From: TPA_inf: Saccharomyces
Taxonomy: Eukaryota
NCBI GenBank assembly: GCA_000146045.2
Contig: BK006949.2
Coordinates: forward strand, 512,001-576,000
Direction: 5' to 3'
Length of the DNA stretch: 64,000 nt
Translations under genes and position numbers: made by a program
Part shown: piece by piece, positions 9,094 to 63,102 of the stretch
Position numbering within the stretch: the stretch's first letter is position 1
How the letters are laid out: every line of letters begins with the position of its first letter
The notes under the pieces: generated by a model
What the model was told of the DNA's origin: nothing
Databases searched by the model: none
The model's input: the letters and a program-made list of their open reading frames with translations, nothing else

Positions 9094-9124
<31 letters not shown>

Positions 9125-13809: not shown

Positions 13810-15000
<1,191 letters not shown>

Positions 15001-16984: not shown

Positions 16985-17362
<378 letters not shown>

Positions 17363-42577: not shown

Positions 42578-43729
<1,152 letters not shown>

Positions 43730-43956
43730 CTGTTTATTAAATATATAATAACATATTTATTTGTTTAACAAGCCTGAAATAAGAAATTCTTTTATAAATA
43801 CATCATCGAGATGATCATCAAAGTGTCTCTATAGTTAATATAAGCTTATGCAAAGGTTGAAGCCGTTATGTTGTCGTAATTCTAAATTACAGGTTATATT
43901 AAAGAGATTATCTTGACTGATATAAAATTTCTTATCATGGTAGTGATCACAAATAG

Positions 43957-44071
43957 ATCACATGATATATTTTTTATTTTTAATTTTTTTTAATTATAAA
44001 AATAATTTTTTTCTTTAAATTAAACAAAAATAAAAAATTGTTTTTTGTTGGTTAAGATTTCCGAAAATAGA
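43957..44071. other. CEN16: Point centromere CEN16: CDEI ATCACATG (43957-43964), CDEII of about 81 bp that is more than 90 percent A+T (43965-44045), and CDEIII TGTTGGTTAAGATTTCCGAAAATAGAAA with the essential CCG at 44061-44063.
   Basis: The CDEI consensus is RTCACRTG. The AT-rich spacer has the canonical length. The CDEIII core TTCCGAA is flanked by TGT and AAA. The element lies in the intergenic gap between HAT1 and CIT3, where CEN16 maps. Confidence 0.9.
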
Positions 44072-44376
44072 AATATTATTCAGTTGAAAGACAAAAAAAC
44101 ATAAATATTTCTATGAGCAAACAATTTGAACAGAAAAATAAAATTGGGGAAGTGACACACCATGGTAGCGGTTCTAAAGCGAAATCGGCAAAGCGGCTAA
44201 ATAGCAGTTTTGATGACTTACTCCACACTGAAAATGGATGACCTTAAATAGGAGATAAAGCTTTTTCATCCCTATGTATTTAAGATGACTGGCTTGTCAA
44301 GCATTCTAATCATAAAAAAAAGATCGTATTTGATCAAGAATTTATACATAGACGCCGCTAAATAATTGAATACAAA

Positions 44377-45837: not shown

Positions 45838-46384
45838 CGCAGTTCCAATTTACAAGAATGCTTCGTTTGCTATTACAATATTGAAATATAAATAAAATTC
45901 CATACAGCATGTCTAATCATAGCTAATTTATACATATTCATCATGAAAACATATAGGGGAAAATATGGTCGGTTAACACACCTATCAAAAAATTATTCAG
46001 CAATTCCAATCTCGTTAGTAAAATATATTCTTATTTTTTTTTTTTTTCTCTGATTGTATTATTTCTGGAGTTTTGACTTATTTTTTTACCACATCGCGCT
46101 TTTCGTCCCCAATCTCTCTGATATATGATGCTGTCTATAGGTAGCCACTTCCCCGATGTCGGACCTCGGGCCGTTTACAAACTTTATTGAGATGACCTTA
46201 TTTCTCCACATTCTAGTCATTCAACTTTTACCCTCATATGTTTACCTTCACTAATGTGAAAGCATGACCAAAGAAAGTGTATAAGGTATATAAATCTGCC
46301 ATAATGTATGTATAACTTATTAGGACTTTCTCAAATAGTATTTTGGTATTTTCTACTGTTCTCTGATGATCGAGAGCAAACAGA

Positions 46385-47935
46385 ATGTTTTTAGCCAAAA
46401 ATCTAAAAAATAATAAAATCAAGGTATGCTTGCCTAAAAAGAAATTTGCTGCGCTGAGTACAGCGTCTATACAAACTAATGAAAGACCAAATCCAGATAA
46501 GGTTTTGAAGGACATCGCGAAATATGTCCATGAAACCCCATTAAAATCATCTTTGGCTCTAGATACAGCACGACTCTGTTTCCTTGATACTCTAGGCTGT
46601 GGCTTGGCGGCTTTGAAATTTAAGCAGGCTCAAAATATTATTAAACCAATTGTGCCAGGAACAATAGTTCCCAGTGGAACAAAAATATTGGGCACATCTT
46701 ACGTTATGGATCCAGTGAAGGGAGCTTTTGCCATTGGTACTCTAATACGTTGGTTAGATTACAATGACTGCTGGTTAGCTGCCGAGTGGGGGCACCCATC
46801 AGATAACCTTGGGGGAATTTTAGCTGTCGCGGATCACTTGTCCAGATTAAACAAGGCTACCCACGGAAAGAATGGAAAACAGTTTCTTGTTAAAGACGTA
46901 TTAGAGGCAATGATTAAAGCGCATGAAATCCAAGGTATTATAGCGCTCGAAAATTCTTTCAATAAAGTAGGTTTAGATCATGTGGTACTCGTGAAAGTAG
47001 CAACGGCTGGTGTTGTCTCGAAGATGCTGGGCCTGAGCCAGGAACAAACTATTGAAGCATTGTCACAAGCATTTGTAGACGGTCAATCACTGCGTACTTA
47101 CCGTCATGCCCCAAATACTGGATCTAGAAAGTCGTGGGCGGCGGGAGATGCAGTTTCGAGGGCTGTAAACTTGGCTTATTTAGTCAAAAATGCTAATGTT
47201 GGCACGATACCTTCAGTATTAACAGCTAGAACCTGGGGATTTTATGACGTTTTATTTAAGGGTAAACCTTTTTCATTCCAACAAAGATCAAAATATGATT
47301 CCTACGTCATGGAAAACGTTCTGTTCAAGATATCATTTCCTGCCGAATTCCATGCGCAAACTGCTGTAGAAGCTGCTGTAAAAGCATATAGGATTCTTGC
47401 CAAACAAGGGAAAACTTTTAAAGATATTAAATCGATCAGAATTAGAACTCAAGAGGCGGCAATGAGGATTATAGATAAATCCGGTCCTCTGTATAATTAT
47501 GCCGATAGGGATCATTGTATCCAGTACATGATCGCGGTTCCGCTGATTACTGGTAATCTCACAGCTACTGATTATTCGGATGAGGTCGCAAGAAATCCTG
47601 AGATCGATAACTTGAGATCGAAAATGTACTGTATCGAAGATACTCATCTCACTCAAAACTATCACGATCCTGATAAAAGGTCGATAGGAAACGCTCTTCT
47701 CATAGAGCTGAACGATGGGACGCAGTTGGATGAAATTTTTGTAGAGTACCCTGTTGGTCACAAATTTAGACGAGAGGAAGGAATACCATTACTAATGAAT
47801 AAATTTCAAAGGCATCTGCGCGAACATTTTGTAGAGAGCCCTGATAAAGTCGACCTTATAATGAAGGTAAGTTCAAAAACAAACTTTTTGAATATGCAAA
47901 TCGACAAATACATGGATTTGTTTACTGAGGGATGA
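46385..47935 (+). CDS. PDH1: Mitochondrial 2-methylcitrate dehydratase Pdh1, 516 aa, PrpD/MmgE family.
   Basis: It has the PrpD/MmgE fold. The length is 516 aa. It lies next to CIT3. Confidence 0.92.
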   Translation: MFLAKNLKNNKIKVCLPKKKFAALSTASIQTNERPNPDKVLKDIAKYVHETPLKSSLALDTARLCFLDTLGCGLAALKFKQAQNIIKPIVPGTIVPSGTKILGTSYVMDPVKGAFAIGTLIRWLDYNDCWLAAEWGHPSDNLGGILAVADHLSRLNKATHGKNGKQFLVKDVLEAMIKAHEIQGIIALENSFNKVGLDHVVLVKVATAGVVSKMLGLSQEQTIEALSQAFVDGQSLRTYRHAPNTGSRKSWAAGDAVSRAVNLAYLVKNANVGTIPSVLTARTWGFYDVLFKGKPFSFQQRSKYDSYVMENVLFKISFPAEFHAQTAVEAAVKAYRILAKQGKTFKDIKSIRIRTQEAAMRIIDKSGPLYNYADRDHCIQYMIAVPLITGNLTATDYSDEVARNPEIDNLRSKMYCIEDTHLTQNYHDPDKRSIGNALLIELNDGTQLDEIFVEYPVGHKFRREEGIPLLMNKFQRHLREHFVESPDKVDLIMKVSSKTNFLNMQIDKYMDLFTEG

Positions 47936-48197
47936 ATGGTTGGCTCTTTAAGAGCGAACGGCATGGTACCTACTTCAATTTTTAAAGACAAAAGGCGCCG
48001 TTTCGATAAACAAGAAATCACTTTCAAAACATAATTAAACCAAAGAACATGCGGTTTTCTAATTATGCTGGCTTAATTTTACTGGTATTTATCTACATAA
48101 TAATAACTATTAAAAAATTAAATAATTGGCTCTATTTATTTTTCTTTCTTCAACTTGCAAGAGTTCGTCAATTCATGGAAAAATACAAAAATAGAAA

Positions 48198-48289
48198 TGC
48201 GAATTCTGTGGATCGAACACAGGACCTCCAGATAACTTGACCGAAGTTTTTTCTTCAGTCTGGCGCTCTCCCAACTGAGCTAAATCCGC
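48198..48289 (-). tRNA. tF(GAA): tRNA-Phe (GAA) with a 19-nt intron after anticodon-loop position 37. The mature body on the minus strand is GCGGATTTAGCTCAGTTGGGAGAGCGCCAGACTGAAGA[intron]TCTGGAGGTCCTGTGTTCGATCCACAGAATTCGCA.
   Basis: The exon sequence is identical to yeast tRNA-Phe. The A box reads TAGCTCAGTTGGGA and the B box GGTTCGATCC. A T-run terminator follows on the minus strand. Confidence 0.95.
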
Positions 48290-48372
48290 TCAATTTCTAT
48301 GCTCTAACCACCTTAGCTAAAAACTCAATACAGGATTAGTTGATAAATGGGTGTTATCAACTCAATCCACAG

Positions 48373-48419
48373 TGTTGGAATCAGAGTCAGTTATCATCTT
48401 TGGGCTAGTATTATTGTAA
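48373..48419 (+). mobile_element. A 47-bp 5' fragment of a delta-like (Ty1/Ty2) LTR, TGTTGGAATCAGAGTCAGTTATCATC....
   Basis: It starts with the LTR terminal TGTTGGAAT and aligns to the first approximately 47 bp of delta. It is truncated by the next element. Confidence 0.6.
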
Positions 48420-49160
48420 GTGTTGGAATAAAAATTCTAAAATATCATCCATTTAGTAGTGTTCATATTACTAATATATCTGTTGGAATAAAAATCCACT
48501 ATCGTCTATCAACTAATAGTTATATTATCAATATATTATCATATACGGTGTTAAGATGATGACATAAGTTATGAGAAGCTGTCATCGAGGTTAGAGGAAG
48601 CTGAAGTGCAAGGATTGATAATGTAATAGGATAATGAAACATATAAAACGGAATGAGGAATATTCGTAATATTAGTATGTAGAAATATAGATTCCATTTT
48701 GAGGATTCCTATATCCTCGAGGAGAACTTCTAGTATATTCTGTATACCTAATATTATAGCCTTCATCAACAATGGAATCCCAACAATTATCTCAACATTC
48801 ACCCATTTCTCAATATCATCACGTGCGGTCTAAGAAGATGATATGAAGATTGAGAATAGTCATCAGGTGTAATGGAAGCTAATTGCAAGGATTGGTAATT
48901 TAGTAGGATGATGAATGACAGTCACATAAGATGAAAAGGAAAACAATAATGCCATTATATCGAGAATATCGATCTCTTCGTGGATTCTTCTCATAGAGAA
49001 ATTCTAGTATAATATATATACGAAATATTATGGCCTTTAACAACAATAAAATTCCAACAATTATCAACTAATTCGAACATCTCTTGACAATATACATTAT
49101 TAATTTTTACATTTCGACTTTCTTTGAATTAGGGACTGTCTCTCAATTCATCTCTTTCTC
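48420..49160 (+). mobile_element. An older diverged copia-type solo LTR, most likely Ty4 tau given its length of about 400 bp. It is split into 48420-48477 and 48813-about 49160 by the delta insertion. It begins TGTTGGAATAAAAATTC and ends ...CATCTCTTTCTCA.
   Basis: The sequence is continuous across the delta insertion when 48477 is joined to 48813. It is related to delta at roughly 70-75 percent identity. The terminal TGTTGG...TCTCA structure is present. The end coordinate is uncertain by about 20 bp. Confidence 0.65.
48478..48812 (+). mobile_element. Solo delta (Ty1/Ty2 LTR), 335 bp, TGTTGGAATAAAAATCCACTATCG...CACCCATTTCTCA, flanked by a 5-bp target-site duplication ATATC (48473-48477 and 48813-48817).
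   Basis: It is a full-length match to the delta consensus with TG...CA termini and a perfect 5-bp TSD. The dubious antisense ORF 48569-48802 lies inside it. Confidence 0.9.
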
Positions 49161-49503
49161 ATACAGAATATCACTTATCCTATATAACTTATATAAGATT
49201 AGAATCTAACTAGAGCGAGGAGAGCGGAAACTCGGATCAAAAGTGATTGTTTAAGTGTTTGTGCGTTTGTGCGGCTCATTAAGACAATAAGGTTTTGCTT
49301 TTGTATTCAATTTTGTGGGTTTTATAACGTATAAATGCGCTTCTTGAAAGCTTGTTAACGATTTTATCGTAAAGAAATAAATAAACTAAAGAATTGAGGA
49401 GACAATACTGTTTTGATAAATAAGCCCCAAAAATATTATAGGGCCGCAAGGAATAAATTTCATAATGCGCATATGCCCAGACTCCTCTGTTTCTTTCGAA
49501 GTT

Positions 49504-51768
49504 TTACACTAGACTTGAATTAAATAAAGTATTGGACATAAAACTCTCCGAATCATTGTTCGGGACGTTGTTCCCTTTAATTTTCATTTTCTCAATTTCA
49601 TAAAGAGCCGCATCAATGCTATCGAAGTACGGAGAATATGTCTCTCCTGCATCACTAAATGTGTTGCTAGTATTATTTTCGTTGTTATTTGCTTGCGCTC
49701 TTTCCACACTAGCAGCTACACCTGCTTTGAATAATCGCCTTCTTACTTTGTCATTTATAGATACATTGACAAGGTAAATAAAGACATTGCGCCTCTTGTA
49801 ACTAGTGATAATTTCCTCCAGCACTTGGGCGGCTGAAGAATCTATTGAGGTCATCCCACCTAAATCGAAAATGACATATTTTATGGAATCCTTCGAGCGA
49901 AGTGATTTCCTTCCAGGATGTATCTTAGACGAACCGTACCTCTCTATTCTGTCAAGTCTCTGTTTTAAATCTTCGCTGTTTGTAAATGTGAGAGGCTCAG
50001 GTATTCTAACAATCATGCATCCCTCGATTTCTTCTGTGCCCTCAACATCCAGAGAGTTCCTTTTCATGTTCATCATGTAGTCGTCAAGATTCGTAAAGTT
50101 CGACGTTCCCGCTACCCTAGCCAGAATTTGGATTCTTGACTTTGCTGAATGCTTTATAATATTTATAATTGAATAGACACATCCGATGCATATTCCTGCT
50201 TCGATTGAGTAAAATATTGTAGTGCAGAAGGTAACAGCAAAAACAAATAGTTCACTAAAGCCACCACATCGCAAATGGAACTTTATGTCGCCTGGCACTT
50301 CCTCTAATAAACTAATTCCGATGATGGTTGTTATGACGGATAAAACACAATTAGGAATATAATGTACGAATTGAAGAAGTAAATTCATTGTGATTAGGGT
50401 GATGACACCCATAAACACTCCCGACATTACGCTTTGTGCTCCTGATAGGGCGTTGATCTTGGATCTTCCATATCCGCCGAATGCGGGAAGAGCACCGAAT
50501 AATGAGATGACAATATTCATGAATCCTAAAGCTACTAGTTCTCTATTAGAGGAAACGGTAAGATTGTAAGTTGTTCCAAGAGATTTCGACGCGGTCGTAG
50601 ATTCAAAAAAACCCAACATTGCCACTATTAGAGATGCACTAAAAAGATCTGGTATTAGCTTACGTCTAGGACGAGTTAAAGGGTTTTTCAATTCATCAAA
50701 ATTGTCCATGCTAAAGTCGCCAATGATAGAAATACCATATCTGTGTTTTAAATTAAATTTCATGGAAATAAGAATAGTAACAATTACCACCAATAATATA
50801 TCTGGAAAAAATATTGCGCTCTTGTGATATTTCATTAATTTCCTCTTTAGTAGACGCGTTAAAAAGAGGACAATCAAGCAACATCCGCTGAATATTGCCG
50901 TTGGTATATGGTATTGTGCTGGTGCATAATCAATGAGGAAAAGTATTTTCTCGAAAGGGGTATGGTAGTGTTGAGGCAAGCTTACTAAAAATTTGTCTAG
51001 CTTTAATTCAGAAATCAAAGAGTTGATTATCATAACCAGTCCTACTGAACTTATGAAACCTCGTAGAAGTGCCTTGCTAAGAACATTTCCAAGGAAACCA
51101 AATCTGGAAATACCAGAAAAAAGTAGGATAGTGCCACTAACAAATGTTATTACTGTTGAAATATCAATTAGAGAAACATTTTCTTTATGTAGTGTTATAG
51201 ATTCGACTGCTTGTCCCACGACCAAGGAAATTGCACTTTCGGGCCCAACTATCATCTGAGGAACAGAACCTAAAATACCATAGACAAATGGGCTAATAGC
51301 CAAAGAATATAGTCCGCATAAAGGTGGGACATGTGCAATTGAAGTTGTGTACGATAGCGCAAGTGGTATCTGAAATGACGCTACTGAGATACCTGCGATT
51401 ACGTCGCCCCACAGTTTATTGAAAGTGTACTCAGGAAGCCATGAAAAGCAGGGCAGGTAATAAGGTAAAGTTTCAAACACTGTATTCTCATCAACGCTAT
51501 CATTATTGTTCGTATTACTTGTATTACTTGTATTATTTGTATTATTTGTATTATTGGTGCATCCTGATCTTGAGTTGTTGGGTGGGGGTACCCCAGTAGT
51601 TGAATTAGATGCTGCAATATAGGTCCTGCCTCGATTGGATGAATCCTTATCATAATCAAAATTGTCCGAGAAAGTGTCACGCTGGTCGACTGATCTTTTG
51701 AATCTTGGTGGAGCGGTAGAGGAATATGACATCCTTCCACGCCCCAATAACGAATTATTTGATGTCAT
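49504..51768 (-). CDS. Putative SulP/SLC26-family anion (sulfate) transporter YPR003C, 754 aa, with a C-terminal STAS domain.
   Basis: Its multi-TM core resembles Sul1/Sul2. The C-terminus carries a STAS domain. The N-terminus is N/S-rich. The length is 754 aa. Confidence 0.88.
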   Translation of the reverse strand: MTSNNSLLGRGRMSYSSTAPPRFKRSVDQRDTFSDNFDYDKDSSNRGRTYIAASNSTTGVPPPNNSRSGCTNNTNNTNNTSNTSNTNNNDSVDENTVFETLPYYLPCFSWLPEYTFNKLWGDVIAGISVASFQIPLALSYTTSIAHVPPLCGLYSLAISPFVYGILGSVPQMIVGPESAISLVVGQAVESITLHKENVSLIDISTVITFVSGTILLFSGISRFGFLGNVLSKALLRGFISSVGLVMIINSLISELKLDKFLVSLPQHYHTPFEKILFLIDYAPAQYHIPTAIFSGCCLIVLFLTRLLKRKLMKYHKSAIFFPDILLVVIVTILISMKFNLKHRYGISIIGDFSMDNFDELKNPLTRPRRKLIPDLFSASLIVAMLGFFESTTASKSLGTTYNLTVSSNRELVALGFMNIVISLFGALPAFGGYGRSKINALSGAQSVMSGVFMGVITLITMNLLLQFVHYIPNCVLSVITTIIGISLLEEVPGDIKFHLRCGGFSELFVFAVTFCTTIFYSIEAGICIGCVYSIINIIKHSAKSRIQILARVAGTSNFTNLDDYMMNMKRNSLDVEGTEEIEGCMIVRIPEPLTFTNSEDLKQRLDRIERYGSSKIHPGRKSLRSKDSIKYVIFDLGGMTSIDSSAAQVLEEIITSYKRRNVFIYLVNVSINDKVRRRLFKAGVAASVERAQANNNENNTSNTFSDAGETYSPYFDSIDAALYEIEKMKIKGNNVPNNDSESFMSNTLFNSSLV

Positions 51769-52006
51769 CCTATAATTGTTTCCGTAAGTTCTTGGAAATC
51801 ACTAGGAAGTTTGTGGAGTTATTGTTCTCCTCATATTCTCCCATCTGGAAGAACTCTATTATTCCTTTGCCATTTCTCGTAGTCTTTTATATTTAGTCCG
51901 CTTTACACCGAAAAGGTCATTTTTAAAAAGGCAAGAGAACTAGGAAAAGTAAAACGTGCCCCCTTCAAAGCGAAGAGATGAATATATTTAGAAGTTAAGA
52001 ATTTAT

Positions 52007-53041
52007 TTATTTATATTTACCAAGTTTTTCAGTTAGTTCAGGGACTATTTTGTAAAGATCCCCTTGCAACCCATAGTCAGCGACATTAAATATAGGGGCA
52101 TCAGGATCATTGTTAATGGCAACGATAACTTTCGAATCCTTCATTCCCGCTAAATGCTGAACTGCACCAGAAACGCCAATGGCTATATACAAATTTGGTG
52201 CGACTACCTTACCAGTCTGACCGATTTGTAGAGAATTATCACATAGTCCATTATCAACAGAAGCTCTTGTGGCACCTATAGCAGCGTGCAAAACATCTGC
52301 TAGCGGCGATAATAGCTTCTCAAATGTCTCCTTATCCTTGAGTGCCCTTCCACCAGTTACCACGTTCTGTGCAGAAGTAAGTTCAGGCCTTTCACTCTTG
52401 GTAAGAATAGTTTTAACCCAGGTAACATTTAAGTCACAAGGAGGAATATCAGTTCTCTTCTCAATGGTAACAGAATCCATACTACCCTCTGCAATTGGTG
52501 GAAAAGCTGATGCCCTAATAATCAACAGTTTTTTTTCTGCCTGGCATTCTATTGTAGAAATAATGTTACCTGCATAAATTGGCCTTATAAAGGTCTTAGG
52601 ATCTTTGATTACAGTAACCTCACAAACAGGTTGGACGTCCAAGAGCGCACCCACCCGAGGTAAAACACTTTTTCCAACAGAGGAGTTTGAGACAACAAAA
52701 TGTGAATAGTCGCCGCCTTTTAATAGTTTCACTAATAACGGAGTTAGTTGTTCGGGAAGACAGGTATCTAATTTTGAATCTTCAAATATGACAAGCTTTT
52801 CTAAATTGCTGCATGAATATGAAGATTTTAGCGCCTCAGCAGTTTTTTCAGCTTTGCTACCTGTGATTACAGCTGTGATAGGGTTAGACAACTTTTGTGC
52901 AGCAGCCAATAAACTCAATGATGACCTTGAAACAGAGCCATCTTTTGAGCTTTCAATGAAAGCTAAAGTGGAGGCGTAATTTTTCTGGAGGAACTTTGCC
53001 TTGCTAGCTCTAGGCAAGACAGCAGCCAATGATTTAAACAT
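52007..53041 (-). CDS. AIM45: Mitochondrial electron-transfer flavoprotein alpha subunit Aim45, 344 aa from the internal ATG (MFKSLAAVLPR).
   Basis: It has the ETF-alpha FAD-binding C-terminal domain (NNDPDAPIFNVADYGLQGDLYKIVPEL). The length is 344 aa after trimming four codons. Confidence 0.9.
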   Translation of the reverse strand: MFKSLAAVLPRASKAKFLQKNYASTLAFIESSKDGSVSRSSLSLLAAAQKLSNPITAVITGSKAEKTAEALKSSYSCSNLEKLVIFEDSKLDTCLPEQLTPLLVKLLKGGDYSHFVVSNSSVGKSVLPRVGALLDVQPVCEVTVIKDPKTFIRPIYAGNIISTIECQAEKKLLIIRASAFPPIAEGSMDSVTIEKRTDIPPCDLNVTWVKTILTKSERPELTSAQNVVTGGRALKDKETFEKLLSPLADVLHAAIGATRASVDNGLCDNSLQIGQTGKVVAPNLYIAIGVSGAVQHLAGMKDSKVIVAINNDPDAPIFNVADYGLQGDLYKIVPELTEKLGKYK

Positions 53042-53786
53042 AGAAATTAACAATTAGCTGCTTTACCGTTAATGGTAGTAAATTATATCACTAGATTTTG
53101 TTTGTTGATTATTTTAATTGTTTTTAATTTTTAGTTAGTAGATTTTCGTTCGAGGCCCTAAAAATGTACCGAAAAGTCATAATAAACGGGCGGAGTCACA
53201 TCGTAAGAGTAACATATACAATATGCGAGCAGACTTTGTCCATTAAGCCAAGTAACAACAAAAGAACCAAAAAAAGGAAAGTATCTCGTCTCTGTTGAGT
53301 AATTCTTATATCTTGCAAGATTTAATTCTCACTACTAATACGGAACTCAATCAAAGTGGCTTAATCCCAAGACATGCATTGAATACGGTATCATTGGCTG
53401 TTGACAGTTTAAGAAAAGTAGTTGTCACGTTCCTGAGGTTACTGGGGACAAGGGAAAGTAGATACTCGTCTTACGAAATTGGATATAGTTACTCTCTAAT
53501 GCTCAATCCATGTAAAGCATGAATCATCTCAACAGAAAAATCTGGGAGAGCATATTTGCAACAAAAGAATCCAAATATCAGTATATAATTATATAAGTGA
53601 GCTAAGAAGTGAACAAAAGAAAAGGAAGAGGGGAAAAATTTTGGCTGGACTTGTAGAACGATAGAACGAAAGAGTCCAAGGGGGAAGTAATAAAGTTATT
53701 GAACGAAACAACAAAAATTCGATGGAGATATTAACAAATGCATAGCAGCGCAGCTAACCGACCCGAAGCTAGTACCAACGAATTTT

Positions 53787-54671
53787 TCAACTATTCTGTG
53801 TTGATTGTCTCCTTTGCAACACCGAGCTCTTCAGTATTCTCAGCTGAAAGTTATTATTGAAATCACGTTGGGGACTTTCATGATCTAGTGGTCTTGGTGA
53901 GTAGCATTTAATATTTTGACCATTGAAAGGGCATCTCTCAATTGGAGAAAGGCCACTCTTAGGGATAGGCGTTTTAACAATCTGTTTATGGGATGAATGA
54001 TATATTTTTGAGGATGGATTCACGATACTGATATGTTTCCCGTCCGCATTATTCGGATATGTAGTGCCTTCTTTCGATAAAATAGATGCCAATCCTGGCG
54101 TATGCTTTGTTTCGATGACGGAGCTTACCAATTTTTCACTTCGTATTTTCGATGAGTTCTTATTTTTACATTTGACGTTCAATATTCCGACATACGTCTC
54201 TCTTTCTGAAATGTTGGAACTCTGTGGCCTTGGATTTGGTGTTTTTTCACCCGAAAAATTGTTGATAACTGCACTTTTCTTTGAGGTACTACTATTTATA
54301 TCTTCCTGCTCTTTTGTTCCCCGCTTAAGATGTTTTGGATGGCAAGTTTCAATAAACTGCGGTTTTATTCCTGCTTCTGAAGAGGTGCCCGAGATGTGAA
54401 CCTCATTTCCACCACTACCAGTATAAGTAAAGTAGTCCGTACCTTCTTTTCCAAAGTCATTTGAGGAATATACCAAAAAAACACCTTCCTTTACTTGAAA
54501 GCGATCCACGAATGGGAAAGTATCCCCTTCCGAAGTCACATCTGAGGGAACAAATTTTAAAACATATGAGATGTTGTTTTCATCCACGGCATCATAAAAT
54601 TTACAGCAATTATTCTCATACATCAAGTTTTTGAGAGTGTAGTCATGCAATCCTAAATCTTTGAAATGCAT
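53787..54671 (-). CDS. HAL1: Halotolerance protein Hal1, 294 aa.
   Basis: The length is 294 aa. It lies between AIM45 and ICL2. A CRE-like TTACGTAA sits in the upstream region. Confidence 0.85.
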   Translation of the reverse strand: MHFKDLGLHDYTLKNLMYENNCCKFYDAVDENNISYVLKFVPSDVTSEGDTFPFVDRFQVKEGVFLVYSSNDFGKEGTDYFTYTGSGGNEVHISGTSSEAGIKPQFIETCHPKHLKRGTKEQEDINSSTSKKSAVINNFSGEKTPNPRPQSSNISERETYVGILNVKCKNKNSSKIRSEKLVSSVIETKHTPGLASILSKEGTTYPNNADGKHISIVNPSSKIYHSSHKQIVKTPIPKSGLSPIERCPFNGQNIKCYSPRPLDHESPQRDFNNNFQLRILKSSVLQRRQSTQNS

Positions 54672-54885
54672 CTGATCTATTTGTTTCTGTATTTCTCTTT
54701 TCTTGAGTTATATAAACGGAATGATTAGTAGTTTGGCAGAATTTATAGCAAGTATTAAATAGTTGAATACCTCAATATTCTCCATAATAAACGCCATATC
54801 GTACATAAAGGCTAAAACAAGAATGCCTGATACCGTTCTGCTTTTTGTTTTATCTTTCCCTATATTTTCTTTCCCTTTTGATGCT

Positions 54886-54893
54886 TTACGTAA
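54886..54893. promoter_or_regulatory. CRE / ATF-CREB site TTACGTAA about 215 bp upstream of the HAL1 ATG. It is a candidate Sko1 repressor site.
   Basis: A perfect palindromic TTACGTAA lies in the HAL1 5' region. HAL1 is an established osmostress gene regulated through a CRE. Confidence 0.55.
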
Positions 54894-55268
54894 TTTTTCC
54901 CGGCATATGTGAGCTTCCTAATAGACTCTATTTTTATTTTTCCCTTTCAAAGTGCGAGAGAAATACACACAACCAGCCTACGCTTATTTTCACCCATACC
55001 GTCATACGCCATATGATATATAATGTGAAACAAACGCGGGGAAGAGCGCGACACGACAGCTTAGCAGGGGCATTCCACGCAACACCTGAAACTTTAAGTA
55101 AAACTGTTTCTGCGAGGATATCTTGGCAAAACAAACACTAACTTTCGAACTAAATATAGTGATCGTGGTCATAAATTAATAAAAAGAGGATAAATAGAGA
55201 TAAAAGAGATATGTGACTAAGTTGCTGGCAATATGTATTATTTATACTTTTATCTTCTTGAAGCGTAT

Positions 55269-56996
55269 TCAAAATTGCGTTTCGGTAAAGCTCTCACCAG
55301 ATGTACTTAAAGTTTGGGATGAAGCACCGTTTTGGACAACTTTCATTAAGGAATCAACATATTCTGCACCAGACCATAGCTGGTGTGTCATGATATCACA
55401 ATTAGTCTCCTTTTCCCGTTTTTGCACTTTTTCGACGTATGCTTTCATTCCGTCACTTTGGAAGCTATTGGCTAATTCCCAGAATGATACTCCATCTGAA
55501 TGCAGACCGGCAAGGGAAACCAGTTGCAACGTGAAGCCTTCTTTTGCCAAGTCCCATACGAAGGATTTTAATGCCTTATCATCAAAGCCGTGAGCGCTCC
55601 AATTGAAACTAGGAGATAAGTTATATACTAGCTTGGTAGCTGGAAGTTGTTTATGAATTTTTCTTGAAAATGAGCGTGCCTGCTCCAGGTCAGGAGTTTT
55701 CGTTTCCAGCCAAATCATATCAGAATATGGGGCAAACACCAAAGATCTTCTAATAGCTGCTTCAATACAACCGTTAAACATGTAATATCCCTCTTTGGTC
55801 CTCGGAGCATCCCAGTCAAATATAATTTTCTTTAGTGGTGTCACTTCTTGAGCTAAAAGTTTCATTTCTCTTAAGCTTAGGTATGCTCTACCCAGCTTGT
55901 TTACCATAAGGTCTTCCTTCTTTTCTTTATAGCTTTCAAACTCGCTTGCCGTAAACTGCTTTTCTAAGGCCTCTTCAAATGTAAACAGCTCATTTTCATG
56001 GTACCATTCTTTTTCCATGTCAGCAATGGCGGAGTTGGGAATTTTTTTGTCCTCCATCTCAATCAATTTTTCGCTCCAAGGCACCACGTTATCTCTTATT
56101 ATACCCCTAATGAATTCGTGGTCTCTCGGATCACTGCTTGAACTCAACAGCTTACCATTACAGGAATCTGTTCTTGCAATAACCAAATTTTCTGTCCCCA
56201 TGATATCCCATTGAAACCTGGTGGAAATCAATCTCATAAGATGTGTTGCTGTGGGCACCAAAACAGCCCCACTTAGATGGCCACACCTTTTGCCTCCCAC
56301 CATCTGATCTTCAAGATGAATACCAGCAGCCCCTTTCTCCGCAAACAACTTAGCAACTTTCATTACAGTCGTTGGGCCACCGTGACCCATGTCTGCGTCC
56401 GCGATAATTGGTTTTAAATAATCAACAGGAGTAGAACCTTTGATGGAGGCCTCCAAGAAAGCCTTTCGATCGTGCAATTGCTGCGCCTTGAATATTCTCT
56501 CCACTTGATTCGGCACAGTATCGTATGGATAATCGCCAAAATCCGGCGATACTTCATTTGTAGATCCAACTAATGTGGAAGAACAAGCCCAACCAGATAT
56601 GTAAGCAACTTTGATATTTCTGCAACGGGCCAACTGACTCATTTGTACAGGATCGATAACTCCCAACGTGTGAAGTGGAGTACCATTCTTGAAATTCTCT
56701 TCTAGTAAGTTGAACAGCTTTCGAGCTTGATAAGATGAAGGATAAATTGAAGTATTAGCAGGAAGGCTGCCCCGATGCTTTACAACATCCGTAGCTGAGT
56801 ATGGACGACTGATATTCTTAAATCTGGCTGATTCCCACCATTCTTCTACTTTACTTGATTCCGAGAACACGAAGTCTTTAGTACTGCTTGCCCCGTTGAA
56901 AGATCTTCGCAGTGACTTGTCTGATGACAAAACCAGCTTCTTCAGTGTTCCCGTAGTTTTTCTATTGAAAGTTTTGTTGTTAATCATTGTAATCAT
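55269..56996 (-). CDS. ICL2: Mitochondrial 2-methylisocitrate lyase Icl2, 575 aa.
   Basis: The isocitrate-lyase family signature reads GGKRCGHLSG, in a PEP-mutase/ICL barrel. The length is 575 aa. Confidence 0.93.
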   Translation of the reverse strand: MITMINNKTFNRKTTGTLKKLVLSSDKSLRRSFNGASSTKDFVFSESSKVEEWWESARFKNISRPYSATDVVKHRGSLPANTSIYPSSYQARKLFNLLEENFKNGTPLHTLGVIDPVQMSQLARCRNIKVAYISGWACSSTLVGSTNEVSPDFGDYPYDTVPNQVERIFKAQQLHDRKAFLEASIKGSTPVDYLKPIIADADMGHGGPTTVMKVAKLFAEKGAAGIHLEDQMVGGKRCGHLSGAVLVPTATHLMRLISTRFQWDIMGTENLVIARTDSCNGKLLSSSSDPRDHEFIRGIIRDNVVPWSEKLIEMEDKKIPNSAIADMEKEWYHENELFTFEEALEKQFTASEFESYKEKKEDLMVNKLGRAYLSLREMKLLAQEVTPLKKIIFDWDAPRTKEGYYMFNGCIEAAIRRSLVFAPYSDMIWLETKTPDLEQARSFSRKIHKQLPATKLVYNLSPSFNWSAHGFDDKALKSFVWDLAKEGFTLQLVSLAGLHSDGVSFWELANSFQSDGMKAYVEKVQKREKETNCDIMTHQLWSGAEYVDSLMKVVQNGASSQTLSTSGESFTETQF

Positions 56997-57335
56997 CGGC
57001 GAAATACTAGAAAAGTCGAAATCGATATTATTATCGGCGCTGTAGCTTCTTTAGGCCACTAGTACTTTTATAAGCTCTTCAACCGCAACAAAAGTTAAGA
57101 AATAAGAGAGTTATTCTTAAGCCCATTTTTTACATTATATAGTGTACGTATGATATCGCTAGCATGATGTTAGTGTTTCGGCGCTTCTAATTGAAGAGCA
57201 TATCCTTTTCTTCTCCAATGCACTTTTATTTCTTTCCCCGCAAGCATATTCGGCCCGGATCTCGGACTTGGATCATTAACCTGAGGACAGCGGCTAGTAA
57301 CCGCTGTCGCTCATATGGAAGGAGAAAATAAAAAT

Positions 57336-59378
57336 TCAGGCATATACAATTATTTCGTCCTCTCTTCTCAGTTTAAGATCTTTAGTTACCGCATCTGCAA
57401 CAGGATATTCGTTCAACTTGACCATCCCTTTCGTAGCCAAATTCAGTAAGGATAGGAAGGCACTGGCGGCTATCTGTCTGCTGACACCTCTTTCTACATC
57501 ATCAAAGTTAGCTCCCGTTTGAGCTTCGCCCATGCGGCTTGGGATGATGTCAACCAACAGCATCTTTCTCTTGAAAGGCGGATTGGAGCGCGTTGTTCTT
57601 CCGACAACAATTGATCTTTCTTTGATGTAATCGTAGAATTTTTTAGTTTGATAATCCAGAATGACGTCTTGAAAATTTGTTTTGTCCTGCTGCAAATTTT
57701 GCTGAGAGCCATCAGAAAAACAACTGTTGCTGGAATCGTCTTCCTCGGCAAAATTCTGTTCAGATGGCCCGACTCTCCTTCTGAGAGCACCAACTATATC
57801 TTCATTGAAACCACTAGACCTGGTTGAGTTTCTGGTATGACTTCTTCCAAAACTTGAAGGAGGTAGATTCAAATTAAAATCTAGGATGTTACCTTGAGAG
57901 TTTTCTTCAATATAGTGCCCATCTTCCAAATCCTCATTAATTTGTTCAAGGTTTAAAAGTAAATTATCATTTTCCATATCGGAAGAATAATTATCGTTCT
58001 TATTATTGCGAAAACTTTTCCTACCATATTCGTGACTTCTGGTACTACTTGAGCTTTGGGTTGATACTAAAGAATGTGCTCTTTTTCTCCCTCTTTCAAC
58101 TGAACTAAAACCTTGGGGATATAAGTCCCATTCGCTAGTCTTTATATTGGAAAAGTCGTTAAATATACTTAACCAATTTGTTGAAAAAAATTCTTCCTCA
58201 CCACATGACCTTACCAAACTACTTATGTTAGAGGTGAGAAAATTTTGGCCGGTTAGTTTTCTAATCCTGTTTTTTTCCATTAAGTGACTGTAATTTCCAT
58301 GGTTGAATTTGAGAACTTCATTTGGATAACTCGTTTTGGCATCAAATTGTACCTTAGAAAATTGCCCACCTACATCGGCGCGATGTCCTCTTTGCATTCT
58401 GGTGTTAAGTTTCTGTTGAAGATCGTTTTCTTCTTCAGAAGCCTGCGCTTCTAACCCCAATTCGTAGTCTTTGAGATTGGCTACCGGCCCTTCATTTTCA
58501 ACTGATGTATCTTCTCCTCCATTACTGTTATTTTCATTATCGTTCTCAAAATTCAACACCAATTCATCTCCTTGATAATTAAACTTGAAATCGTTTCCAT
58601 CCTTCTGTGAACTTGAGTGAGAGCCTAAAGGTGTCCCCTGATGGCTCACTATATCATCTAAGTCCAGGTTAAAGTCCACATCAACGGGAATTTCATCCAG
58701 CGGAAAAGAATTTCTAACGTTAGATCCTAGATTACTTTGCGCGTCTGAGTTAGTCATGTCCCCATGAAGCTCGAACCTGTTAGAATTACTTAACTCATTG
58801 ATGTAGTCTTGTCTCCTTATTGATTTAGCTTCCTCAATAAAAGATACATTATCTTGGAGAGTAGTGTTAAGAAACTCCAGTGCGGGAACTTTAGTAATAT
58901 CATATAAGGGATCGTCATCGAAAAAAACGCATTCTTCCCAGGTGTAATTATTGTTTTTGTTTCCTATAATACTGTTATTACTATTCAATCCATTAATCCT
59001 CGTAGACTTATTTTTGGCCTTAAAAGCGTATACATCATTTTTTTGTAACTGCACAAGCAGGTGATTTAGGTCATTCAACACATACTCGGTTTTTTTATTA
59101 TAGCAAATTGTCACTCCATATAAAAGATTAGAAATGTATCTAAGAGAAAAATCATTTTCGAAATTTTGAATTTCATCACATGTTTTTGGTATGGAAATAT
59201 TTACGATGTCTTTTTTCTTAACGGTGGATGAAGATATGTTTCCAGTGGAGTTGCTTTTGTTTGAATAATAATTGTTACTTTCCTTTACAATGGAATTTCC
59301 CAACGCAGAAAGCAACCACACTGTTGTGAGGCCCTTATATTTCTTGTCATCTTTAAAGTTCAACGAAAGAGGTGCCAT
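57336..59378 (-). CDS. REC8: Meiosis-specific cohesin kleisin subunit Rec8, 680 aa.
   Basis: It has the N-terminal kleisin (Rad21/Rec8) domain and a C-terminal winged-helix domain. The length is 680 aa. URS1 and MCB motifs lie upstream. Confidence 0.9.
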   Translation of the reverse strand: MAPLSLNFKDDKKYKGLTTVWLLSALGNSIVKESNNYYSNKSNSTGNISSSTVKKKDIVNISIPKTCDEIQNFENDFSLRYISNLLYGVTICYNKKTEYVLNDLNHLLVQLQKNDVYAFKAKNKSTRINGLNSNNSIIGNKNNNYTWEECVFFDDDPLYDITKVPALEFLNTTLQDNVSFIEEAKSIRRQDYINELSNSNRFELHGDMTNSDAQSNLGSNVRNSFPLDEIPVDVDFNLDLDDIVSHQGTPLGSHSSSQKDGNDFKFNYQGDELVLNFENDNENNSNGGEDTSVENEGPVANLKDYELGLEAQASEEENDLQQKLNTRMQRGHRADVGGQFSKVQFDAKTSYPNEVLKFNHGNYSHLMEKNRIRKLTGQNFLTSNISSLVRSCGEEEFFSTNWLSIFNDFSNIKTSEWDLYPQGFSSVERGRKRAHSLVSTQSSSSTRSHEYGRKSFRNNKNDNYSSDMENDNLLLNLEQINEDLEDGHYIEENSQGNILDFNLNLPPSSFGRSHTRNSTRSSGFNEDIVGALRRRVGPSEQNFAEEDDSSNSCFSDGSQQNLQQDKTNFQDVILDYQTKKFYDYIKERSIVVGRTTRSNPPFKRKMLLVDIIPSRMGEAQTGANFDDVERGVSRQIAASAFLSLLNLATKGMVKLNEYPVADAVTKDLKLRREDEIIVYA

Positions 59379-59522
59379 TGCAGAATATTTGTAATATTAA
59401 TCTATATATAGCAAATGCTTTAGAGTTGCTGAGGCTAAAAAGAAATTATAGAACAACTATAAAATATTAAGTCCGGATACACTGCTTCCTTTATACCATG
59501 CCCTTCCCTTTATAGTGTAAAA

Positions 59523-59564
59523 ACGCGTAATCTTAATCAATCTGATATATTGGTTTGCCGCCGA
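59523..59564. promoter_or_regulatory. REC8 promoter elements: an MCB ACGCGT (59523-59528) and a URS1 core TGCCGCCGA (59556-59564, equivalent to TCGGCGGCA on the minus strand), 145-185 bp upstream of the REC8 ATG.
   Basis: URS1 (GGCGGC core) is the Ume6 site of early meiotic genes. MCB is the MBF site of premeiotic/G1-S genes. Both are exact matches in the correct promoter. Confidence 0.6.
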
Positions 59565-59714
59565 AGTCAAGTTCTCCTGCTAAAACGAGACAAAAAGAAC
59601 ACGTGAAAGAAGAAAGAAAAACGTTACGATAAAATAAGTTTTATACCTACTTTCATATCTACCAAAGGAACACAATGAATTGCCGTATGTTATTCTTGAA
59701 GTAAGAGTCAAGTA

Positions 59715-59788
59715 TTATTTATGGACTAGTATTCACGTTACTAGTACATTATCACATGCGGTGTAAGAAGATGATATAAAAATTGAGG
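59715..59788 (+). mobile_element. An approximately 75-bp internal fragment of a tau/delta-like LTR in + orientation (…TTACTAGTACATTATCACATGCGGTGTAAGAAGATGATATAAAAATTGAG).
   Basis: It aligns to positions of about 35-110 of the older LTR at 48420-49160. It is truncated at both ends. The boundaries are uncertain by about 10 bp. Confidence 0.5.
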
Positions 59789-60173
59789 GACAGTAATCAA
59801 ATTCAACGGAAGTCAAAAAGGAAGGATTGGTAATGTATAATATCGAAAAATGTGCGAAATAGTTGATAATTGTTGGAGTTTTATAGTTGTTAAAGGCTAT
59901 AATATTACGTATTTAGAATATACTAGAATTTCTCTATGAGAAGAACCCACGAAGAGATCGATATTCTCGATATAATGGCATTATTGTTATCCTTTTCATC
60001 TTATGTGACTGTCATTCATCATCCTACTAAATTATCAATCCTTGCAATTAGCTTCTATTACACCTGATGACTGTTTTTCAATCTTTATGTGATCTTTTTA
60101 CACCCAATGTGATAAAGTACTAGTAACATGAATACTACTAAACAGATGATACTTTAGAGTTTTCATTCCAACA
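59789..60173 (-). mobile_element. A near full-length copy, about 385 bp, of the same tau-like LTR as 48420-49160 but in inverted (minus) orientation. The TGTTGGAATGAAAACTC terminus reads as GAGTTTTCATTCCAACA at 60157-60173 on the + strand.
   Basis: Its reverse complement aligns end to end with the older LTR at 48420-49160. I estimate more than 85 percent identity over the long central block. It lies 96 bp upstream of tG(GCC). Confidence 0.7.
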
Positions 60174-60268
60174 CTCAATTGTAAAAATAAGACAATATTA
60201 TGATTTTTTGGCTGTATAACCACATCTATTTAGTAGCAGGGTGACATGTTACTCCCACACAATACTTC

Positions 60269-60339
60269 GCGCAAGTGGTTTAGTGGTAAAATCCAACGTT
60301 GCCATCGTTGGGCCCCCGGTTCGATTCCGGGCTTGCGCA
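60269..60339 (+). tRNA. tG(GCC): tRNA-Gly (GCC), 71 nt, GCGCAAGTGGTTTAGTGGTAAAATCCAACGTTGCCATCGTTGGGCCCCCGGTTCGATTCCGGGCTTGCGCA, followed by a T5 terminator.
   Basis: It is identical to yeast tRNA-Gly(GCC), with no intron. The B box reads GGTTCGATTCC. It ends in ATTTTTCC. Confidence 0.95.
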
Positions 60340-61017
60340 ATTTTTCCCCCTCGCCCTGAAGGGCGTAACGTTAACGCTTCCGGTAATTTGCGAATAATTT
60401 TTCTTCCCATTTCCCCTTTCTTTTCCCTTTAACATGTGGAGCATAGCAGGCTCTTTACTTTTTTACGCATTCAGACAGTCGGGAGGTCAATTGGTGGTGC
60501 CGGTTGTGGGAAAGAGGTAATTTTATTTCCTTTATTGGACATGATTTCAATAGTCACATTGGGGCAGGAAAAAGAAAAGGGAGAAAAAAATTCAGTAAAG
60601 AAAAAAAATAAGAAAAAGAGAAAAGAAACAAGAGAGGGCTACAGATTTCTAAATATCCTTTTGCTGCACATTTTTTATTTACCTGCTAATTGGTCTTAGT
60701 AATACAGAGTCGTGCATTTCCACTTTATAAGAAAAAAAAAAGGGATAACAGCACCAGCACTTGATTGAAAACTAGAAAGTTCACGTTTTATAAGTCCTTT
60801 CCGTTCTCTTTATCAGTTATAATAAAAGAGCCAAGACAAAACGTGGCAGGGAAGCTTTTCCAAGGAAAAGAGGGTTGTAATATTAAACAAAAACCGTAAT
60901 CAAGCAAAATAAGACCCCGTGGTTTTTTATCATAGGAAAAGAGTTCTCTGTTGTCACTCTACCATATTTGACAAGAAAAAGGAAACAAAAGTATAGAAAA
61001 AAAAAACCTAAAAAATA

Positions 61018-63102
61018 ATGGTCTTGATAAATGGCATAAAGTATGCCTGTGAGAGGTGCATAAGAGGCCATAGAGTAACAACATGCAATCATACAGATCA
61101 ACCGCTTATGATGATCAAACCCAAAGGTAGACCTTCCACTACATGCGACTATTGTAAACAACTTCGAAAAAACAAGAATGCAAATCCTGAAGGTGTTTGC
61201 ACGTGTGGCCGGCTAGAGAAGAAAAAACTGGCACAGAAAGCCAAAGAAGAAGCAAGAGCTAAAGCCAAAGAAAAACAAAGAAAACAGTGTACCTGCGGGA
61301 CTGATGAGGTTTGCAAATATCATGCTCAAAAGAGACATCTAAGAAAGTCCCCTTCAAGTTCTCAAAAGAAAGGAAGATCCATTTCTCGTTCTCAACCAAT
61401 GTTTGAAAGGGTATTGTCTTCTACTTCACTTGACAGCAATATGTTATCCGGCCACGGAGCACTATCAGATACCTCTAGCATACTGACGAGCACATTTTTA
61501 GACAGTGAGCCGGGTGTTGGTAAAATTTCAAAAGATTACCATCATGTCCCTTCATTGGCCTCCATTTCATCCTTACAATCCTCGCAATCGTTAGATCAAA
61601 ATTTCAGTATACCACAAAGCCCGCCGTTATCTTCAATGTCATTTAATTTTCTCACGGGAAATATCAATGAAACCAACCAAAATCACAGTAATCATCAGCA
61701 TTCAAAATCAGGCAATAACTGGCAAGATAGTTCGGTAAGCTTGCCAGCGAAAGCTGATTCACGTCTTAACATGATGGATAAAAACAACTCTGTGGGTCTT
61801 GACCTATTAGGCCATTCAAAACGAATATCGCCGATATCAAACTCTCGTGTGGGCGAAGTTAGCGTTCCGCTAGAAGAATATATTCCTTCTGACATTGATG
61901 GGGTTGGAAGAGTTACTGATAAAAGCTCTTTGGTCTACGATTGGCCATTTGATGAAAGTATTGAGAGAAATTTCAGTACAACCGCAACCGCTGCAACTGG
62001 TGAAAGTAAGTTCGACATTAACGACAACTGTAATAGAATTAATAGCAAAAGTTATAGTAAGACTAATAGTATGAATGGAAACGGTATGAACAATAGCAAT
62101 AATAATAATATCAACAGTAATGGCAACGACAAGAACAATAACAACTCTTCTAGACAAGAACATCAAGGAAATGGACTATTTGACATGTTTACAGATTCAT
62201 CGTCGATTTCAACGCTTTCCCGTGCAAACTTATTATTGCAAGAAAAAATTGGTTCGCAAGAAAACTCTGTCAAACAAGAAAACTATTCGAAAAATCCTCA
62301 ACTTCGTCATCAATTAACTTCCAGAAGTAGATCATTTATTCATCATCCGGCAAACGAGTATTTGAAGAATACTTTTGGAAATTCACATAGTAATGACATC
62401 GGAAAGGGAGTTGAAGTGCTATCTTTGACACCGAGTTTTATGGATATTCCCGAAAAAGAAAGAGAAACGGAAAGATCGCCATCATCCAATTACATTACTG
62501 ACAGACCTTTCACTCGAAAACCTAGATCTTCTAGCATTGACGTAAACCATAGGTATCCACCTATGGCACCAACAACCGTAGCGACATCTCCCGGTGCATT
62601 GAACAATGCCGTAGCAAGCAATCTCGACGATCAACTGAGTTTAACATCACTAAACTCTCAGCCATCATCGATAGCAAATATGATGATGGACCCTTCAAAC
62701 CTAGCTGAGCAAAGTTCTATTCATTCAGTTCCTCAGTCAATAAACTCTCCGAGAATGCCTAAAACTGGAAGTCGCCAAGACAAGAACATTCACACTAAGA
62801 AGGAAGAAAGAAATCCGCTAAATAACATACACGATCTGTCACAATTGGAAAATGTACCAGACGAGATGAACCAAATGTTCTCCCCACCATTAAAAAGTAT
62901 GAATAGACCGGATGCCATAAGGGAAAATTCATCTAGTAGTAATTTCATAATCCAAGGAAATAGCATGATCTCTACGCCTTCCGGAAGGAATGACCTTCCA
63001 GATACCTCTCCAATGAGTAGTATTCAAACAGCGTCACCACCAAGTCAATTACTGACCGATCAAGGATTTGCGGATTTGGATAATTTCATGTCTTCGTTAT
63101 GA
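61018..63102 (+). CDS. HAA1: Weak-acid stress transcription activator Haa1, 694 aa, with a copper-fist-type zinc-binding DNA-binding domain.
   Basis: An N-terminal copper-fist domain is present (MVLINGIKYACERCIRGHRVTTCNH...CDYC), as in Ace1/Mac1. The length is 694 aa. Confidence 0.94.
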   Translation: MVLINGIKYACERCIRGHRVTTCNHTDQPLMMIKPKGRPSTTCDYCKQLRKNKNANPEGVCTCGRLEKKKLAQKAKEEARAKAKEKQRKQCTCGTDEVCKYHAQKRHLRKSPSSSQKKGRSISRSQPMFERVLSSTSLDSNMLSGHGALSDTSSILTSTFLDSEPGVGKISKDYHHVPSLASISSLQSSQSLDQNFSIPQSPPLSSMSFNFLTGNINETNQNHSNHQHSKSGNNWQDSSVSLPAKADSRLNMMDKNNSVGLDLLGHSKRISPISNSRVGEVSVPLEEYIPSDIDGVGRVTDKSSLVYDWPFDESIERNFSTTATAATGESKFDINDNCNRINSKSYSKTNSMNGNGMNNSNNNNINSNGNDKNNNNSSRQEHQGNGLFDMFTDSSSISTLSRANLLLQEKIGSQENSVKQENYSKNPQLRHQLTSRSRSFIHHPANEYLKNTFGNSHSNDIGKGVEVLSLTPSFMDIPEKERETERSPSSNYITDRPFTRKPRSSSIDVNHRYPPMAPTTVATSPGALNNAVASNLDDQLSLTSLNSQPSSIANMMMDPSNLAEQSSIHSVPQSINSPRMPKTGSRQDKNIHTKKEERNPLNNIHDLSQLENVPDEMNQMFSPPLKSMNRPDAIRENSSSSNFIIQGNSMISTPSGRNDLPDTSPMSSIQTASPPSQLLTDQGFADLDNFMSSL

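Follow-up and report, generated by a model that had tools for sequence, protein, structure and literature searches.

Two old inverted delta long terminal repeats near CEN16 of Saccharomyces cerevisiae probably still recombine and flank a five-gene block found inverted in one assembly

Genes and repeats of the locus

The 64,000-nt stretch analysed here (the window) comes from Saccharomyces cerevisiae chromosome XVI, where it carries, to the right of CEN16, the genes CIT3, PDH1, YPR003C, AIM45, HAL1, ICL2, REC8 and HAA1. This gene content and the CDEI-CDEII-CDEIII centromere served to identify the locus. Five of them, from YPR003C to REC8, are bracketed by two old solo long terminal repeats (LTRs), called A_L (left) and A_R (right), which are placed in inverted orientation, each next to a tRNA gene. 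Comparison with public assemblies and contigs (sequences labelled with L-numbers, e.g., L014 or L023) revealed one assembly, GCA_947370465.1, in which the five-gene block is flipped. The explanation favoured here, with a probability of about 0.85, is that A_L and A_R are two old delta solo LTRs which still recombine with each other, by conversion and by an occasional inverting crossover. The window presumably corresponds to chrXVI:512001-576000 in SGD coordinates, and the position of CEN16 agrees with that offset. The features of the locus are listed below in window positions.

43957..44073, no strand: CEN16, with the centromere DNA elements CDEI (ATCACATG), AT-rich CDEII and CDEIII (containing TTCCGAAA), read from the sequence
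48198..48289, - strand: tRNA-Phe(GAA), intron-containing (Rfam RF00005, 56.7 bits)
48421..48480, + strand: A_L 5' part, positions 1-60 of an old delta-like LTR, joined directly to the 3' part in L014 and L016
48481..48812, + strand: delta1, a nested younger canonical Ty1/Ty2 delta solo LTR, 332 bp, TGTTGGAAT...TCTCA
48818..49145, + strand: A_L 3' part, positions 61-388, including a 56-bp 3' tail at 49090-49145
49504..59378, - strand: invertible block YPR003C-REC8 (open reading frames, Pfam labels and order of orthologues)
49504-51768, - strand: YPR003C
about 52007-53041, - strand: AIM45
53787-54671, - strand: HAL1
55269-56996, - strand: ICL2
57336-59378, - strand: REC8
59784..60173, - strand: A_R, an old delta-like solo LTR, 390 bp, with the 3' tail at 59784-59841
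60269..60339, + strand: tRNA-Gly(GCC) (ARAGORN; Rfam 60.3 bits)

The left LTR begins 4.35 kb right of CEN16. The tRNA-Phe and tRNA-Gly genes are transcribed divergently and both have LTR material upstream. The distance is 131 bp between A_L and tRNA-Phe and 95 bp between A_R and tRNA-Gly, and in both cases the U3 end is nearest to the tRNA gene. Such positions fall under the established rule of a Ty1 targeting window upstream of genes transcribed by RNA polymerase III (Pol III). The S. paradoxus orthologue of the left tRNA gene was identified by ARAGORN as tRNA-Phe GAA, and tRNA-Gly(GCC) was kept in every Saccharomyces species checked. An earlier reading of the same DNA, made without database searches (the sequence-only reading), had described an inverted LTR pair beside tRNA genes around these five genes. 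The orientation, spacing (10,638 bp apart) and neighbours of the pair were right, and open reading frames with Pfam labels showed the five genes to be those that had been named.

Structure of A_L and A_R

A_L, with a total of 388 bp, and A_R, with 390 bp, were reverse complementary along the whole length (blastn E 5e-130 over 390 nt), in agreement with the sequence-only reading. The description of the pair as near-identical had to be corrected, since the global alignment gave 85.7% identity (56 differences in 392 columns). A core of 213 columns (104-316) was 94.8% identical and the flanks about 75%, a contrast matched by 0 of 300 permutations. Just four differences were located within columns 104-257, and the longest perfect matches had 45, 42, 27 and 20 bp. 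An inverted-repeat search returned arms of 276 nt with 90% identity (48855-49130 and 59800-60075), far beyond chance.

Both copies start with TGTTGGAAT. The part homologous to delta ends at about position 335, with ..TCTTGACA in A_L and ..TTTTCGA in A_R, and the common unit continues for 55 bp past this point, to ..CTCTCA and ..CCCTCA, respectively. No target-site duplication, direct or crosswise (swapped between the copies), was found in the sequences flanking A_L (GTAAG and ATTCA) and A_R (TTGAG and AATTT); at such an age, duplications of this kind are expected to be eroded.

The segment 48420-49160, previously taken for one LTR, turned out to be a composite in which A_L is split by the nested delta1. 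The inner element is framed by the target-site duplication ATATC (48476-48480 and 48813-48817) and contains ATGGAATCCCAACAATTATCTCAACATTCACCCATTTCT, which we take to be the Ty1/2 Gag start. In L014, L016, L032 and L033, delta1 is absent, ATATC is present in a single copy and A_L runs uninterrupted over 388 bp. This shows that the nesting is genuine and that delta1 is a recent, polymorphic insertion.

The inverted block in GCA_947370465.1

The orientation of the block was surveyed using REC8, YPR003C and ICL2 protein variants sampled across public assemblies. The standard orientation was found in about 23 S. cerevisiae assemblies and the inverted one in a single assembly (1 of about 24), GCA_947370465.1, on the 970-kb contig CANBYC010000016.1, which was sampled twice, as L023 and L058. 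The gene order on this contig is HAT1+ CIT3+ PDH1+, then REC8+ ICL2+ HAL1+ AIM45+ YPR003C+, then HAA1+, compared with PDH1+, then YPR003C- ... REC8-, then HAA1+ in the reference. In the megablast alignment, positions 1-8408 of L023/L058 corresponded to window 39890-48305 (+), positions 9276-20961 to window 60104-48419 (-) and positions 20874-22043 to window 60090-61257 (+). The short-read and Logan contigs in the sample (L009-L012, L024-L041) ended inside the identical LTR core, and short-read assemblies consequently cannot separate the two orientations.

Both inversion breakpoints were located inside the LTRs. The junction LTRs are reciprocal chimeras, as judged from 80+ diagnostic sites: on the tRNA-Phe side A_L is followed by A_R and on the tRNA-Gly side A_R is followed by A_L. 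The closest standard-orientation relative, L022, was used as the parental reference for mapping the exchange. L022 and L023 share the REC8 and ICL2 alleles and a polymorphic sigma by tRNA-Phe, and in both of them A_L holds delta1 and A_R a second nested delta. The switch on the tRNA-Gly side fell within a 45-bp identical run (A_L 48896-48940, A_R 59990-60034) and the switch on the tRNA-Phe side within a 28-bp identical run (A_L 49024-49051, A_R 59879-59906). Between these two points, all six diagnostic sites, spanning at least 83 bp, were A_L-type in both products. The diagnostic-site mapping of L023 versus L022 delimited two intervals.

48896..49051, + strand: recombination interval in A_L (converted from column numbering)
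59879..60034, - strand: recombination interval in A_R

The combined length of the intergenic regions on either side of the block is 3892 bp in the inverted strain as well as in L022, so that the exchange was balanced to the base. Taken together, the switches and the tract between them bear the signature of double-strand-break repair with a conversion tract of 83-155 bp, resolved as a crossover. The initiating break was probably in A_R and repaired from A_L. The proposal of the sequence-only reading that the LTR pair is an inversion substrate was thus borne out by the flipped block, the reciprocal chimeric LTRs and the conversion tracts found elsewhere; the LTRs belong to one family, are 86% identical and are present in all S. 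cerevisiae assemblies inspected, and the orientation of the block is not uniform.

Conversion between the LTRs and the proposed mechanism

Exchange of sequence was also detected in strains with the standard orientation. In L055 and L056, A_L carries A_R alleles at 17 diagnostic sites (columns 258-367), with two A_L sites inside the tract. A_R-type sequence was found at the start of the A_L 3' part in L053, and smaller A_L/A_R conversion patches in L007, L016, L032, L033 and L057. The 17-site tract in L055/L056 cannot consist of retained ancestral alleles, and repeated conversion seems to be the most economical account of the high-identity core.

According to the proposed mechanism, A_L and A_R would have been left by insertions in the usual Ty integration zones upstream of the two tRNA genes, and their mutually inverted orientation would follow from the divergent transcription of these genes. 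They would have no function of their own and would behave as homeologous inverted repeats, recombining by ectopic homologous recombination. Most events would be non-crossover conversions, in which one LTR is patched from the other and the core of about 210 bp is kept about 95% identical. Occasionally, a break would be repaired with a crossover, and the 10.6 kb between the LTRs would be inverted with no DNA gained or lost.

Several points weigh against this explanation. The inversion is known from one assembly, and the two samples of its contig may be two deposits of that same assembly. About 23 other assemblies are standard, which implies a low rate or a low persistence of the inversion; the inversion is rare. 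Some of the short conversion patches could be retained ancestral alleles or products of allelic recombination. At 86% identity, mismatch-repair anti-recombination should strongly suppress exchange, given that a divergence of 2% gave an approximately 5-fold drop in an ectopic recombination assay (PMC6511840). Finally, the junction to the 55-bp tail which the two copies have in common is not explained by an independent insertion of ordinary deltas.

Age of the LTRs and ancestral orientation of the block

A_L and A_R were found at no less than 98.9% identity in every S. cerevisiae assembly whose read stretch includes the LTR. The right site is empty in S. mikatae, relative to which S. cerevisiae has no additional DNA there besides the 480-bp composite at 59694-60173. 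The search of S. kudriavzevii and S. eubayanus gave no A copies. In S. paradoxus, different deltas occupy both sites; these LTRs are nearer to canonical deltas than A and lack the tail, and they are unlikely to be A orthologues. Among the species compared, A_L and A_R were found only in S. cerevisiae.

The order HAA1, REC8-ICL2-HAL1-AIM45-YPR003C recurs in S. paradoxus, S. mikatae, S. kudriavzevii and S. eubayanus. On the far side, PDH1 was seen in S. paradoxus, S. mikatae and S. kudriavzevii, but not in the S. eubayanus stretch. Within the block, collinearity extends even to Zygosaccharomyces rouxii. As the four other Saccharomyces species share it, the reference orientation is ancestral. The likeness of the two LTRs had been ascribed to insertions of the same subfamily or to a past rearrangement between them. 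Both copies belong to one family, and a past rearrangement in the reference lineage found no support given the ancestral orientation.

The shared 3' tail and the origin of the pair

Both A copies carry the same tail of about 55 bp, which is an inverted copy of delta positions ~93-150 and is attached through the same gap-free junction. On the right side the tail is adjoined by a further fragment.

59694..59783, + strand: B_R, 5' fragment (positions ~1-93) of a younger delta, collinear with the A_R tail

Identity to the S. paradoxus-type delta amounts to about 92% for B_R and about 62% for the adjoining tail (hand count on the alignment). The tail is thus collinear with a far less diverged fragment, and the right piece has to be a mosaic of young and old sequence. 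On the left, a continuation of the inverted fragment beyond 49145 was not significant in shuffle tests, and the one BLAST extension beyond this position could be traced to the tail itself. Metagenome contigs scanned for exact 20-mers of the A variant gave only this locus and one further match. The tail may derive from an extended-U5 subfamily, from a snap-back cDNA or from a DNA-level copy.

The identical gap-free junction in both copies raises the alternative that A_L and A_R are DNA-level inverted duplicates of one composite (an LTR with part of a neighbouring inverted LTR) and not independent retrotranspositions. Such a composite could have arisen from a breakpoint duplication in an old inversion, from ectopic conversion of an LTR with its flank or from aberrant integration of snap-back cDNA. 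The collinear run of the right tail into the 5' delta fragment at 59694-59783 speaks for it, as does the 480-bp composite being the only inserted material relative to S. mikatae. Against it, the homology between the two loci starts exactly at TGTTGG and ends at ...TCTCA (+3 nt), at TG...CA limits as expected for a transposed LTR, and on the left side the inverted fragment does not continue significantly. In the right fragment, the 5' part is also much younger than the tail, which fits a later deletion or recombination joining a younger delta to the tail. With the block in its ancestral orientation, there was no inversion with a breakpoint duplication in the reference lineage; an origin of the duplicated ends from staggered breaks or a past inversion was rejected on the same ground. 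Overall, duplication at the DNA level was considered unlikely.

Two further proposals were taken together as a joint alternative of small probability. In the first, the pair would be a self-maintaining inversion/conversion hot spot by CEN16, in which recurrent conversion could keep the core of about 210 bp recombinogenic and the block could flip repeatedly, a miniature of the known polymorphism on chromosome XIV. In the second, the LTRs would be an unrecognised Ty1-family product, either an LTR variant in which an inverted segment of U3 lengthens the U5 end, or snap-back cDNA that integrated through its ends.

Reality of the inversion

The possibility was also considered that the pair is inert, the inverted assembly being a mis-assembly or polishing artefact across the repeat and the paralogue-matching variants being ancestral polymorphism. 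The single inverted assembly among about 24 is in line with such an artefact, the short-read contigs broken inside the LTRs show that the repeats trouble assemblers, and the inversion is known from assembled sequence. However, the contig is a 970-kb chromosome-scale sequence, and a mis-join would have left one A_L and one A_R allele at each site, in contrast to the six sites that are A_L-type in both junctions. The balance of the exchange (3892 versus 3892 bp) also disagrees with an artefact, and the 17-site conversion tract in independent standard strains demonstrates that these LTRs exchange sequence. An assembly error is accordingly regarded as quite improbable, and recombination between two old delta LTRs as the better account.

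Assignment of the LTRs to the delta family

The sequence-only reading had called both copies tau-like. Full-length alignment identified both as delta. A_L and A_R matched delta1 with 69-71% identity over 322-352 nt (E 6e-27 to 3e-31), and in a multiple alignment they were collinear with canonical Ty1/Ty2 deltas of S. cerevisiae, S. paradoxus and S. mikatae, including the stretch that holds the Ty1/2 Gag start in active elements. This homology, together with the lack of similarity to Ty4-like LTRs, indicates that A_L and A_R are diverged delta-family (Ty1/Ty2) LTRs and not tau.

To reach reference LTRs, Ty4/Tsu4-type Gag proteins were recovered by a large protein search. The Ty4-like reference was S. 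kudriavzevii IFO 1802 contig JH797039.1 (L021), with LTRs at 7698-8001 and 13453-13758. These LTRs have 304-306 bp and read TGTTGGAAC...ATCAACA, with Gag (MATPVR...) beginning at the LTR edge. Viral contigs searched with a Ty4 Gag sequence gave no match. In L021, the region 6300-17239 contains a Ty4-like element in a complex array, with partial repeats of the Gag region and its upstream part 6.5-9.3 kb downstream, which suggests tandem or nested Ty4-like copies.

That A_L and A_R are Ty4 tau elements was judged very improbable: their 388-390 bp are nearer to the 371 bp of tau than to the ~334 bp of delta and they begin TGTTGGAA, like the Ty4-like LTR, but the surplus length is accounted for by the 55-bp tail, the homology to canonical deltas covers the whole length with the Gag-start region, and the best match to Ty4-like LTRs had E 0.04 over no more than 23 nt (the reference being an element of another species, S. 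kudriavzevii). The ends also differ, as A_L and A_R have TGTTGG at the 5' end and TCA (...CTCA) at the 3' end, compared with ...ATCAACA in the Ty4-like LTR, so that the TGTTG...CAACA inverted repeat is not formed. The identity of A_L or A_R with the SGD tau site YPRCtau3 was rejected, as neither the published guide RNA for this site nor one of its check primers has a match in the window.

A_L and A_R share with delta solo LTRs upstream of tRNA genes the full-length homology to canonical deltas, TG...CA ends (if the unit is taken with its 55-bp tail), a location some 100-130 bp upstream of Pol III genes and the nested or fragmentary neighbours. As in delta hot spots, polymorphic younger insertions (delta1, delta2, a sigma and full-length Ty) occur at the same spots in other strains. 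A_L and A_R differ from ordinary deltas in the unusual 55-bp 3' extension of inverted delta sequence, in having no recognisable target-site duplication and in being only about 70% identical to canonical deltas.

Consequences and comparison with known systems

As the breakpoints are intergenic and each gene would keep its own promoter side, no gene should be disrupted by the inversion. The sequence-only reading had anticipated that an inversion would flip ICL2 relative to CIT3-PDH1 and move REC8 relative to CEN16. In GCA_947370465.1, ICL2 shares its strand with PDH1 and CIT3, and the distance of REC8 from CEN16 would fall from about 13-15 kb to about 5-7 kb. In a heterozygote, crossovers within the 11-kb paracentric inversion would be lost. 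Crossovers are scarce this near to a centromere, so the cost to the heterozygote should be small. With no gene or promoter cut and a low crossover rate expected by the centromere, the inversion would be selectively near-neutral.

In the homeologous recombination assays of Datta and Jinks-Robertson in yeast, inverted repeats of about 350-390 bp were reportedly used, in which a crossover flips the segment and divergence and mismatch repair limit the rate. The present pair resembles these constructs in the size of the repeats and the flip by a crossover, and differs in that it occurs naturally in a chromosome and its repeats have diverged by 14%.

Well-documented features of S. cerevisiae populations include solo deltas at tRNA genes, nested insertions and inversions associated with LTRs or Ty elements (PMC10412453, PMC12711572), and 84 inversions containing genes were reported in ScRAP (PMC10412453). 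The inversions of ScRAP and of the 1,086-genome panel (PMC12711572) are, like the present one, copy-neutral, with breakpoints in dispersed repeats, rare and located outside subtelomeres; the present inversion spans five whole genes. Compared with the catalogued events, the present inversion involves repeats that are old, of only 390 bp and no more than 86% identical, and the exchange points could be placed in islands of 45 bp and 28 bp with a conversion tract between them. The 24-kb inversion polymorphism on chromosome XIV, whose flanking inverted repeats stay similar through recurrent homogenisation (Salzberg et al. 2022, as cited in PMC12711572), is similar in having inverted repeats around a gene block, conversion between the repeats and both orientations in nature. 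As described in that citing source, its repeats are gene duplicates and the polymorphism is common and shared among species, whereas the repeats here are LTR relics, the inversion is so far a singleton and the other species are without the repeats.

In the searchable part of the literature, which does not extend to the full structural-variant tables of PMC10412453 and PMC12711572, no paper linking 'inversion' with these genes was found, and the event probably sits unremarked in structural-variant catalogues. The process is ordinary LTR-mediated recombination, and the case adds a further rare natural example of it and no new mechanism. It provides a natural crossover resolved to the base between 390-bp inverted repeats with 14% divergence, which helps to judge how diverged repeats may be and yet rearrange genomes. 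The REC8-YPR003C segment, 4-16 kb from CEN16, is not always oriented as in the reference, which matters for mapping, marker design and studies of pericentromeric recombination. A practical point is that short-read assemblies break exactly at A_L/A_R.

Other insertions and polymorphisms

In L005, L022, L023 (8409-8747), L047 and L053, a polymorphic 340-bp element with the sequence TGTTGTATCTCAAAATGAGATACG...CCCGTAATACAACA was observed about 10-16 bp upstream of tRNA-Phe. It would sit between positions 48299 and 48305 of the window, from which it is absent. We take this element to be a solo LTR of Ty3 (sigma) placed at the Pol III start site. In L022, L023 and L051, which form one clade, the 5' part of A_R contains a second canonical Ty1-type delta, at A position ~69 (window ~60105). 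It is 82% identical to delta1 and lies about 9 bp from the corresponding A_L position of delta1. The HAA1-REC8 spacer in L052 measures 7.6 kb and probably holds a full-length Ty at the same spot as the delta nested in A_R.

In L045 and L046, similarity to the window was lost for more than 3.5 kb downstream of YPR003C, just before tRNA-Phe (window ~48302 and 48378, respectively), with an inverted delta visible in L046. Full-length Ty insertions at this hot spot are the probable cause. More short debris of delta 5' ends was noticed by eye at window 48374-48420 (TGTTGGAATCAGAGTCAGTTATCATC...) and 60215-60250 (CCACATCTATTTAGTAGCAGGGTGACATGTTACTCC), that is, between the old LTRs and the tRNA genes, which fits repeated insertions at both sites.

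Within the block, no HAL1 was called between ICL2 and AIM45 in L006 (GCA_030036235.2), and the spacer between these genes lacks about 1.4 kb compared with other strains (window ~53100-55200), which suggests a deletion polymorphism removing HAL1.

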